64,000 nucleotides of DNA from the sequence record MW741821.1; one strand, given 5' to 3'. This DNA comes from Escherichia phage vB_EcoP_DE5. Positions 4,051-63,875 of the stretch are shown piece after piece. The notes under the pieces are model-generated. The model was not told the origin of the DNA and did no database searches. It saw only the letters and a program-made list of their open reading frames with translations. Positions within the stretch are counted from its first letter, which is position 1, and each line of letters starts with the position of its first letter. The position numbers and the translations under genes are program-made.

Positions 4051-4106
4051 TTAAAACTCCTTAATATATCAGTGTACACTAAGGAGTATACATTATAAGT
4101 TACTGT

Positions 4107-27028: not shown

Positions 27029-27328
27029 TCACCACTCCTTACCGGTTGTAATCGTAGAGCCACCACACCACAATGCTGTATCAATAACAACATTATCCGG
27101 TGTAGACTTCTCTTCGTTGATAGAAGGGTTAGCATTAGAACAGGTTGCTCCGTTCCATCGCATATCAATTTCACCAGAAGGAATCTTCTCACCCTTATGC
27201 CAGCGAGAAACACAAACACCTTCCACTGCTACTGCACACCATCCATCAGGACGGCTCTGTACGCAGCCTGTAAGGGCTATGCAGACAAGGAAGATACAGA
27301 TTAAGGATATTACACCACCCCAACTCAT
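27029..27328 (-). CDS. predicted lipoprotein
   Basis: 99 aa; signal peptide with lipobox ALTGC; AGGAGGT SD. Confidence 0.6.
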   Translation of the reverse strand: MSWGGVISLICIFLVCIALTGCVQSRPDGWCAVAVEGVCVSRWHKGEKIPSGEIDMRWNGATCSNANPSINEEKSTPDNVVIDTALWCGGSTITTGKEW

Positions 27329-27348
27329 AATTACCTCCTATTAGATTT

Positions 27349-27440
27349 GGTGGACTATCTGGAATCGAACCAGAAGCTCACTAAGAAAGTAATTCCCACT
27401 GTTATAAAAGCACTTGCCTCAACAGGGATACACTAACTCT
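27349..27440 (-). other. tRNA-like element (T-arm present; full cloverleaf not resolved)
   Basis: Minus-strand UCUGG-UUCGAUU-CCAGA T-arm followed by UAGUCCA-CCA, but no matching 5' acceptor strand found by hand. Confidence 0.3.
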
Positions 27441-27468
27441 GGTGCCGCACCCATACTAGCCCTAAATG

Positions 27469-27544
27469 TGGTGCGCCCTACAGGACTCGAACCTGTAACC
27501 AATAGCTTAGAAGGCTACTGCTCTATCCATTGAGCTAAGAGCGC
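27469..27544 (-). tRNA. tRNA-Arg (anticodon TCT)
   Basis: Hand-folded: acceptor GCGCTCT/AGGGCGC, D-arm GCTC-AATGGATA-GAGC, anticodon stem GTAGC/GCTAT with loop CTTCTAA, T-arm ACAGG-TTCGAGT-CCTGT, discriminator A, encoded CCA. Confidence 0.85.
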
Positions 27545-28769: not shown

Positions 28770-28803
28770 TAATTAAAACAACAAAGGCCACCCGAAGGCA
28801 GCC
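28770..28803 (-). terminator. Rho-independent terminator (possibly bidirectional)
   Basis: Hairpin GGCUGCC-UUCG-GGUGGCC with U-rich tracts on both sides. Confidence 0.55.
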
Positions 28804-29311
28804 TTTTATTTATTAACTGTTATACGTCCAATTACCTTGCTTGTTACGGATGGCTGACATTGCATGAATCCAAAAGCCTTCCAGTTTCAGAGCACCATTA
28901 GCTACTGCATCCATACGTTCAGGGCGGTTCATACGTTTGGTTGATACTTTCATACCTATCTCTCTTTGTTAGTGGAGGCATTATTGCCAGTTGATATAAG
29001 GGATAGCCCTAGTCAGTAGACTAACCCTGACCGCGTACTCATTGCCGACCTTCTCTGCCTAAGAGTTCAGGTTCTAGAGCTATCTCTTATTCCAACTGGT
29101 GAAGACTCCCTACCCCTAGGAAGTCTCCTGAATCCCAAACCAATACGTACCCCTACATATCGGAAAGTCTTTCGAAAATTAACAGGTTTTAGTCTAACAC
29201 CGGATGTTCGAGCAAGCTCTCCCTAGCGGTGTGGCATATGCCTGAATTAATAAGTTAATGAGGAACACCCTCACATAGCCCTCTGATAAACACAAGGGCT
29301 ATAAGTCGGTG

Positions 29312-46772: not shown

Positions 46773-46781
46773 TAATGTATA
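46773..46781 (+). promoter_or_regulatory. putative phage-specific promoter element TAATGTATA
   Basis: Exact 9-mer about 42 nt upstream of ATG at 46815; same 9-mer at 63844-63852. Confidence 0.45.
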
Positions 46782-63830: not shown

Positions 63831-63875
63831 GTCCTGCCTTCTATAATGTATATAGGGGGTAGGACATTTTTATTT
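63831..63875 (+). terminator. terminator-like long-loop hairpin with U-tract
   Basis: Stem GUCCUGCC/GGUAGGAC with a 19-nt loop that contains TAATGTATA, followed by AUUUUUAUUU. Confidence 0.35.
63844..63852 (+). promoter_or_regulatory. putative phage-specific promoter element TAATGTATA
   Basis: Exact 9-mer about 39 nt upstream of ATG at 63891. Confidence 0.45.

Follow-up and report, generated by a model that had tools for sequence, protein, structure and literature searches.

Bacteriophage T4 encodes two small stable RNAs known as C and D (genes rnaC and rnaD; also called species 1 and 2 RNAs) in the order homing endonuclease segB, tRNA-Arg(UCU), rnaD (119 nt) and rnaC (139 nt); both RNAs are expressed, and neither has a known function (PMC3014915, PMC9697503, PMC12685909). 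A comparable arrangement was found in a 64,000-nt stretch of DNA from Escherichia phage vB_EcoP_DE5 (sequence record MW741821.1; hereafter the window, meaning the whole stretch analysed), which represents a Kuravirus-like podovirus of E. coli in the subfamily Gordonclarkvirinae. Here, as in T4, a tRNA-Arg(UCU) gene is followed by a further small element, a tRNA-like unit of 115 nt that starts 6 nt downstream of the tRNA CCA on the same minus strand, and in the relatives Bas91 and YF01 a homing endonuclease gene lies upstream. Phages of this type are under development for therapy and have consistently been described with a single tRNA (PMC9965538); the papers that report this one tRNA do not mention the tRNA-like unit (PMC9965538, PMC11990801). 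Judging from the sequence comparisons and folding models described below, we consider that the unit is probably (roughly 60%) a separate gene under selection, whose product is a tRNA-like small RNA that does not decode.

The 3' portion of the unit reads ...GCUUCUGG-UUCGAUU-CCAGA-UAGUCC-A-CCA on the minus strand, with its last base at 27348. A first-pass annotation made from the sequence alone had drawn attention to this T arm and to the 3' end UAGUCC-A-CCA, and both are as it described: the T arm is canonical, having a 5-bp stem, a 7-nt UUCRANY loop and the G53-C61 pair. Chance does not account for it, as the T-loop core GGTTCRANTCC occurs at only two sites on both strands of the window (27361-27371 and the tRNA-Arg gene), compared with an expectation of about 0.12, and two sites were reached in 0 of 100 shuffles. 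The same annotation could match no 5' acceptor strand, which is correct within the 95 nt that it searched; the strand was overlooked because it lies 110-115 nt upstream, where GGGCUA (27462-27457) is complementary to UAGUCC (27357-27352). The resulting pairs (G1-C111, G2-C110, G3.U109, C4-G108, U5-A107 and A6-U106) are all invariant in the sampled copies, and the chance of finding six pairs at pre-fixed positions is about (6/16)^6 = 0.003. Furthermore, the acceptor complement falls exactly at the edge of a conserved block that was defined independently, and we count this in favour of a tRNA-like RNA.

The remaining parts of the unit were delimited in the same way (Table 1). Downstream of tRNA-Arg(UCU), the minus strand continues with CAUUUA and then GGGCUAGUAUGGGUGCGGCACCAG...GCUUCUGGUUCGAUUCCAGAUAGUCCACCA. 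A short D-arm-like hairpin with GG in its loop is predicted at 27440-27453; this is the weakest part of the unit (z = -0.66 when folded alone), and GGUG/CACC is an alternative stem. The feature runs over 27348-27462; the span given at first, 27349-27440, lacks the 5' acceptor strand, the U8-A9 linker, all of the D arm but its last base, and the final A of the CCA. The acceptor can be read in two registers, either as six pairs followed by A and CCA, giving an 11-bp stack with the T arm, or as seven positions with an A.A mismatch at the top (A0 = position 1) and without a discriminator; G7 (27456) is unpaired unless it lies opposite A105. Between the D and T arms there are about 42 extra nucleotides: where a tRNA has about 23 nt of anticodon arm and variable region, the unit has 65 nt, 57 of which form a predicted rod. 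No open reading frame of at least 30 aa lies inside the unit on its own strand.

Table 1. Window coordinates of the tRNA-like unit, its parts and its neighbours; RNA positions are p = 27463 - window coordinate.
Feature	Coordinates	Strand	Basis or remark
tRNA-Arg(UCU), constant upstream partner	27469..27544	-	ARAGORN; Rfam tRNA 72.4 bits
Spacer CAUUUA, 6 nt, from tRNA-Arg CCA to G1 (proposed RNase P 5' leader)	27463..27468	-	AUUUUAAACAA here in Bas91 and TH42
Whole tRNA-like unit	27348..27462	-	115 nt, GGGCUAGUAUGGGUGCGGCACCAGAGUUAGUGUAUCCCUGUUGAGGCAAGUGCUUUUAUAACAGUGGGAAUUACUUUCUUAGUGAGCUUCUGGUUCGAUUCCAGAUAGUCCACCA; conserved block in 7 sampled phages runs from A0/G1 to CCA
5' acceptor strand GGGCUA, positions 1-6	27457..27462	-	Complement of positions 106-111
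U8-A9 linker	27454..27455	-	As in ordinary tRNAs; same UA aligned in R1 matches to real tRNAs
D-arm-like hairpin, positions 10-23	27440..27453	-	Stem UGG/CCA, loop GUGCGGCA with G17 G18; constrained folds and ARAGORN relaxed model
Predicted irregular rod, positions 24-80, 57 nt, at anticodon-arm site	27383..27439	-	Constrained fold
Linker AGUGAGCU, positions 81-88, 8 nt, variable-region equivalent	27375..27382	-	Unpaired in constrained folds
T arm UCUGG / UUCGAUU / CCAGA, positions 89-105	27358..27374	-	Aligns with true-tRNA T arms under model R1
3' acceptor strand UAGUCC, positions 106-111	27352..27357	-	Sequence and pairing
Discriminator A112 and encoded CCA (113-115)	27348..27351	-	Sequence; in EP335 similarity ends directly past CCA
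3' trailer AAUCUAAUAGGAGGUAAUUA with ribosome-binding site and start codon of downstream gene	27328..27347	-	Sequence
Downstream gene, Phage_lipoprotein family protein	27029-27328	-	Start codon in the 3' trailer of the unit

That the element is derived from a tRNA was already suspected in the first-pass annotation and holds, given the T arm, both acceptor strands, U8-A9, the D-loop GG and the encoded CCA, whereas the three specific readings that it offered (a type II tRNA, a tRNA with an insertion, or a tRNA-derived remnant) fit poorly. Standard finders are silent at the unit, an outcome that it had named in its refuting condition: ARAGORN at default settings reported only tRNA-Arg, and Rfam gave no match at the gathering score in the window nor at E<=10 in a 401-nt slice, a result that excludes a canonical tRNA and not a tRNA-like RNA. 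A canonical anticodon arm (5-bp stem, 7-nt loop, U33 and purine 37, within a total of about 72-95 nt) is lacking from this 115-nt sequence with its predicted 4-nt apical loop, and so is the combination of a normal anticodon arm and a 13-21-nt variable stem-loop that characterizes type II tRNAs. The intron, relaxed, mitochondrial and tmRNA modes of ARAGORN yielded only sub-threshold and mutually inconsistent models (Asn with an intron, Arg of 66 nt, and Pro with a 115-nt intron), and we set these aside. The insertion reading was examined by a scan of all single-segment deletions of 5-61 nt at positions 20-88, none of which gave a tRNA at the ARAGORN default threshold. A group I intron is likewise not indicated, with no intron-family match in Rfam at E<=10 and extra sequence of only about 22-42 nt; the Rfam search of the 401-nt slice at E<=10 also found no known aptamer or ribozyme.

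It is very improbable that the unit is a decoding tRNA overlooked by the finders, whether a type II tRNA with a small anticodon-loop intron (Asn GUU, or Tyr GUA in the neighbouring register) or a novel tRNA. Such a tRNA can be drawn, for ARAGORN with -i0,60 -ps90 returned a 93-nt 'tRNA-Asn(GUU)' with a long variable arm and a 22-nt intron between the anticodon bases, and the D loop GUGCGGCA is of a type found in type II and Gln tRNAs. Also counted in its favour is that unusual cloverleaves exist in bacteria and phages (PMC5389517, PMC7609411). The long-variable-arm model is nevertheless sub-threshold, requires the intron to split the anticodon, carries an A.A mismatch at the top of the acceptor, and is incompatible with the models obtained at the 80% threshold. 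When the acceptor and T arm were enforced, the best fold was a cloverleaf with positions 24-80 folded into a single irregular rod (-31.4 kcal/mol), and the ARAGORN-like variable-arm model was 9 kcal/mol worse (-22.0 kcal/mol). We know of no splicing system for a 22-nt intron in E. coli or in these phages, which further counts against a decoding tRNA, as do the failure of any single deletion to restore a tRNA, the silence of the Rfam tRNA family at E<=10 and the lack of a group I intron match. Taken together, the unit is neither a tRNA of the canonical, type II or intron-bearing sort nor a truncated remnant.

In the constrained model, the rod is predicted to consist of 3 bp, an internal loop, 4 bp, a second internal loop and a 13-bp hairpin (35-68) with U and UAU bulges and an AAGU tetraloop. 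Folded alone, the 57-nt segment forms one rod whose minimum-free-energy and centroid structures coincide (z = -2.1; 5 of 200 shuffles as good). An alternative model places positions 71-85 in a 5-bp 'variable arm'.

The unit was detected in 29 phage records, at 97.4-100% identity overall and 97.6-100% by blastn, spanning the genera Kuravirus, Suseptimavirus and Nieuwekanaalvirus; the carriers include SU10, TH06, YF01, Bas91, 101114UKE3 (Suseptimavirus) and EP335 (Nieuwekanaalvirus). It is annotated in none of the 29 records, a few of which have no annotation of any kind. With the approximately 95 E. coli and Shigella records that hold a full-length Gordonclarkvirinae primase gene as the denominator, roughly a third carry the unit. 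In non-carriers, the lipoprotein gene lies 19-20 nt past tRNA-Arg, and phiEc_1 and MN03 differ from the window here by a clean indel of 121 nt, which comprises the 6-nt spacer and the 115-nt unit and is bounded by the CACCA that is common to the two 3' ends. Close relatives lack the unit, so it is dispensable.

Seven carriers, chosen across the identity range, were compared in detail. Only four sites vary among them (G15A, G24A, A48G and A73G) and there are no indels; all four substitutions are transitions, of which, in the predicted structure, G15A lies in the D loop and A48G in the rod loop, while G24A (G.U to A-U) and A73G (U-A to U.G) retain pairing. By segment, identity is 112-115 of 115 nt for the unit and 74-76 of 76 nt for tRNA-Arg, compared with about 80-87% for the alignable flanks of the two other genera; within Kuravirus, genome-wide identity to the window is 94-97%. 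TH06, for example, carries an identical unit, yet over 25 kb its identity to the window is only 94.0%. The unit sequence is kept beside two unrelated tRNA-Arg(UCU) alleles, beside tRNA fragments in TH42, and beside three different downstream genes. Both flanks are mosaic, with similarity starting at A0/G1 and, in EP335, ending right past the CCA.

These comparisons bear directly on the reading of the unit as a decaying tRNA pseudogene, that is, an Ala- or Gln-like phage tRNA with a scrambled or expanded anticodon region that is carried passively with the tRNA-Arg locus. This we judge unlikely, though far from negligible. It would fit the absence of any tRNA call by the finders, an acceptor that is one pair short, the replacement of A14 by U, the resemblance of the last 35 nt to a tRNA-Gln of a T4-like Klebsiella phage, the absence of the unit from most relatives, and the tRNA debris and allele swaps at the locus, such as the D-arm-less tRNA-Arg-like sequence and half tRNA of TH42. 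It is less easily reconciled with 0-3 differences per 115 nt and no indels among three genera that diverge by 13-20% in the flanks, with substitutions that spare every predicted pair, or with a unit that has come intact through several recombinations replacing both of its neighbours, with breakpoints at its ends. Both acceptor strands, the CCA, the T loop and the D-loop GG are intact as well. The remnant proposed by the first-pass annotation meets the same objections: the unit is not truncated, keeps both acceptor strands, and is conserved like the functional tRNA-Arg beside it amid mosaic flanks.

Several observations weigh against a selected small-RNA gene. About 70% of the relatives lack the unit, and the high identity of the copies could stem from recent spread by recombination or by homing-endonuclease co-conversion rather than from selection. 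The copies show no two-sided covariation, having only four variable columns; covariation is uninformative here because the copies are nearly identical, and the rod and the D arm are therefore thermodynamic predictions only. The unconstrained minimum-energy fold (-37.9 kcal/mol) disrupts the T arm, with a z-score of only -1.96, and the secondary structure of the middle part is accordingly a prediction only. The acceptor/T stack of 11 bp instead of 12, or of 12 with the A.A mismatch at its top and no discriminator, could disturb RNase P, the CCA enzyme and EF-Tu. Finally, no homologue was found outside Gordonclarkvirinae to give comparative support.

The searches behind this last point covered several collections. 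Exact and gapped pattern scans of IMG/VR found no homologue of the unit, and the seven matches in Joint Genome Institute (JGI) metagenomes were all chance GGGCTAGTATGG strings upstream of ordinary tRNAs. Among 185,579 species genomes of GTDB there was no match to the 3' end of the unit, and the central-hairpin pattern gave one chance match there, in a coding sequence that by eye resembles an adenine phosphoribosyltransferase gene. With the lipoprotein neighbour gene as query, only four IMG/VR kuraviruses were gained, all four without the unit. A search of 5,426 E. coli genomes by blastn gave no match to the unit, which is therefore not an attachment-site copy of a host tRNA end.

It is quite improbable that the sequence is conserved at the level of DNA, as a target or scar of recombination or homing endonucleases, as a promoter, or as a copy of a host tRNA 3' end at an attachment site. 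A role of this kind would agree with the repeated CACCA of two tandem 3' ends that bounds the indel and with the mosaic locus, at which a homing endonuclease gene lies beside or overlaps the tRNA in Bas91, YF01 and Ptacy1532. Against it stand the lack of matches in the 5,426 E. coli genomes and, for the 3' end, in the 185,579 species genomes; the lack of a promoter-like site at the unit; and the T-loop consensus, the acceptor complement exactly at the block ends and the terminal CCA, none of which a DNA site needs. A phage-sigma promoter inside the unit was considered and rejected: TAGTGTATC agrees with TAATGTATA, which we take to be the promoter element of the phage sigma factor in phiEco32, in no more than 7 of 9 positions, and the window shows no enrichment of sites with one mismatch. 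Exact matches to TAATGTATA lie at three places in the window, 4087-4095 (-), 46773-46781 (+) and 63844-63852 (+).

The tRNA-Arg locus itself is a recombination hot spot, much like the segB tRNA region of T4. Across Gordonclarkvirinae, at least three unrelated tRNA-Arg(UCU) alleles occupy the locus at window positions 27469-27544 (also loci L004, L006, L018 and L019), and extra small open reading frames are present there in XT73 and 172-1. In TH42 (MT446413.1, locus L007, about 250-390; a record marked UNVERIFIED), no intact tRNA-Arg lies upstream of the unit and ARAGORN calls none there; the sequence holds a D-arm-less tRNA-Arg(UCU)-like element (GGGGGUU...CCCGU-CUUCUAA-ACGGG...GCAGG-UUCGAGU-CCUGU-AACCCCC), followed by the 3' half of a Bas91-type tRNA-Arg.

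The unit descends from a tRNA, and sequence resemblance points to two possible sources. The acceptor of E. coli tRNA-Ala(UGC), GGGGCUA/UAGCUCC-A-CCA, is the same stem as GGGCUA/UAGUCC-A-CCA of the unit except for the 4:69 pair, and the T loops read UUCGAUC and UUCGAUU, respectively; the reference sequence of this tRNA-Ala was found at 100% identity, annotated as tRNA-Ala, in 5,408 genomes. R1, a covariance model that we built from the unit, aligns the acceptor, D and T parts of the unit to genuine tRNAs with the rod deleted, and finds no second copy of the unit in the window. Among its best matches is a phage tRNA-Ala called by ARAGORN in a metagenomic tRNA array (L011), which has GGGC.../...GUCC-ACCA (the top four pairs plus ACCA) in common with the unit. 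Its top non-self match, at 22 bits, is the tRNA-Gln of a T4-like Klebsiella phage (...UCUGGUUCGAAUCCAGAUAGUCCAGCCA), which the last 35 nt of the unit resemble.

The set G3.U70 with A73 and G2-C71 is the established identity set for alanine, and alanyl-tRNA synthetase (AlaRS) ignores the anticodon. In the unit, the corresponding elements are G3.U109, G2-C110 and A112 before the CCA, which are invariant in the sampled copies, a correspondence that holds only if the 5' end is G1. Given this identity set in the acceptor, AlaRS is predicted to be able to charge the RNA; on this sequence criterion the unit RNA could be chargeable with alanine, provided that it starts at G1.

The same acceptor features are found in tRNA-Ala and in the tRNA-like domain of tmRNA (G1-C72, G2-C71, G3.U70, A73 and CCA), and the unit, with its G3.U-type acceptor and T arm, has the make-up of such a domain. 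As in tmRNA, the top half is kept and a long helix takes the place of the anticodon arm; unlike tRNA-Ala, the unit has six acceptor pairs instead of seven and no anticodon loop. A miniature tmRNA-like ribosome-rescue RNA, in which an alanine-charged tRNA-like domain would be joined to a very short tag, is still barely credible. The shared acceptor, and a long helix that leaves the tRNA-like domain at the site of tmRNA helix P2, would suit it, whereas the unit measures 115 nt against about 360, has no pseudoknots, and offers no convincing tag frame in its single-stranded stretches, the one long frame entering the T arm. The ARAGORN tmRNA search was empty even at the 80% threshold (-m -ps80), and no Rfam tmRNA family matched at E<=10.

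We then compared the unit with the T4 RNAs and with other tRNA-like RNAs. Like rnaC, it belongs to a cluster with phage tRNA and immediately follows a tRNA gene; the 3' end of rnaC is a T-arm-type hairpin (CCGGG-UUCGAAU-CCCGG), and in other T4-like phages rnaC is found inside tRNA arrays. In contrast to the unit, however, rnaC has no encoded CCA, has a 46-nt 5' extension and, in two lineages, has a hairpin loop that is not T-loop-like, and rnaD has no T arm. Homology with rnaC or rnaD finds no support, as the blocks CGNUUCGAGGA, GUAGCGUCAACU and GGCGUUYCGUACAA that are conserved in rnaC homologues are absent from the unit. R1 scored T4 rnaC at 13.1 bits (E = 0.7), and a forced MAFFT alignment of the unit with T4 rnaC and rnaD gave only 20 invariant columns of 140 and, apart from generic T-loop letters, no shared block. 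On these sequence comparisons, the unit and the T4 RNAs C and D are of the same kind in the same kind of place, and belong to different families. Rfam has no family for rnaC or rnaD.

Some properties of rnaC were recorded on the way. Its homologues (T4, L025 1909-2172; L031, L032 and L033) lie within tRNA arrays in T4-like phages of Enterobacter and Kosakonia, and their terminal hairpin shows compensatory changes (CCGGG/CCCGG, CCUGG/CCAGG and CCAGG/CCUGG), although not every lineage has a loop there that resembles a T loop. In T4 rnaC, an 8-bp acceptor-like stem, ACGGAACG/CGUUUCGU, can form within the last 93 nt. A decoy of the tRNA-Lys anticodon loop, considered on account of CUUUUA in both the unit and T4 rnaC, was dropped when the motif proved not to be conserved among rnaC homologues.

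Engineered 'tRNA scaffold' RNAs carry a foreign hairpin at the anticodon arm, and the tRNA body gives them correct processing and high stability in E. coli; the C4 antisense RNA of P1 and P7 is an RNase P-processed phage RNA with a known antisense target. The former are artificial and the latter has its target, whereas the search for an antisense target of the unit within the window gave a best complement of only 13 nt, on a strand without genes and at about chance level. YrlA (RF02553) is, like the unit, a non-coding RNA in which a tRNA-like module (T arm, D arm) is joined to a long helix; in YrlA, by contrast, the acceptor-like stem is capped, and it is the ends that make up the long helix to which Ro binds. 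To our knowledge, E. coli normally has no Ro/Rsr partner. As a candidate family YrlA was rejected, its match having 14.1 bits against a gathering score of 69 (E = 4.7) and lying mostly over the T arm of tRNA-Arg; the weak Rfam matches to YrlA and Plastid-ycf2 fall on tRNA-Arg and not on the unit.

The unit is embedded in an extended series of small genes on the minus strand, with neither a promoter-like nor a terminator-like site next to it, and we therefore place it inside a polycistronic transcript. A terminator-like hairpin with a 10-bp GC-rich stem and a T run is present on the same strand at 28783-28806 (-), about 1.3 kb upstream of the tRNA locus, and may mark the start of the transcription unit with tRNA-Arg and the tRNA-like RNA.

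A non-decoding tRNA-like RNA could be produced and act as follows. One minus-strand transcript would contain the unit, tRNA-Arg and the flanking small genes; host RNase P, directed by the helix of acceptor and T arm and by the terminal ACCA, would cleave on the 5' side of G1, and the AU-rich trailer would be cut and then trimmed to the encoded CCA. The unit retains the tRNA 'top half', with the acceptor stem and A-CCA, the T arm, and a D loop whose GG could make the elbow; the resulting tRNA-like fold, an L-shaped top half with a long rod, would confer stability, and charging with alanine by AlaRS might follow. The RNA would read no codons, because it has no 7-nt anticodon loop, its predicted apical loop has 4 nt and its arm is far too long for the decoding site. 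The rod is most likely the effector part in this model. Our best guess at its action is that of a tRNA mimic that would bind or divert a host factor recognising tRNA, for instance AlaRS, a defence enzyme that targets tRNA, or an enzyme of modification or processing. The fuller proposal, a phage-made alanine-chargeable tRNA mimic whose rod targets a host factor, either as an RNA decoy that would shield the phage from an immune enzyme directed at tRNA or as an aminoacyl-RNA that does not decode but acts on the ribosome or AlaRS, is doubtful and we advance it with little confidence.

Elsewhere in the window (9650-11077, minus strand), a 475-aa nucleotidyltransferase of PHROG 12715 matches the PolyA_pol head domain below threshold, scoring 20 bits where the cutoff is 23 (E = 9e-4); from this similarity it may be an enzyme of the CCA-adding or poly(A)-polymerase type, which could act on the 3' ends of tRNAs. 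Over the 1.2 kb surrounding the unit, the window is 100% identical to Escherichia phage SkaterBoy_Bas90, which is also the best match over 25 kb, at 97.4% identity in eight aligned pieces; with only this identity over 25 kb, the window represents a close relative of Bas90 and not that deposited genome. Between 9000 and 15000, gene offsets are shifted by 57-250 nt relative to PQ850626.1 (SkaterBoy), and the primase gene of the window finds its best match in YF01 (98.6%).

The case shows that tRNA-derived genes of this sort are missed by default tRNA finders. The unit would be a second example of a tRNA-Arg followed by a small stable RNA, the T4 case having been known for 50 years and being still unexplained. 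Carriers and non-carriers coexist and differ by a clean 121 nt, which makes the function of such RNAs directly testable. If the unit does encode an alanine-chargeable tRNA mimic whose rod targets a host factor, small effector RNAs of phages would gain a new class, and this would give a hint to the role of the T4 RNAs C and D.

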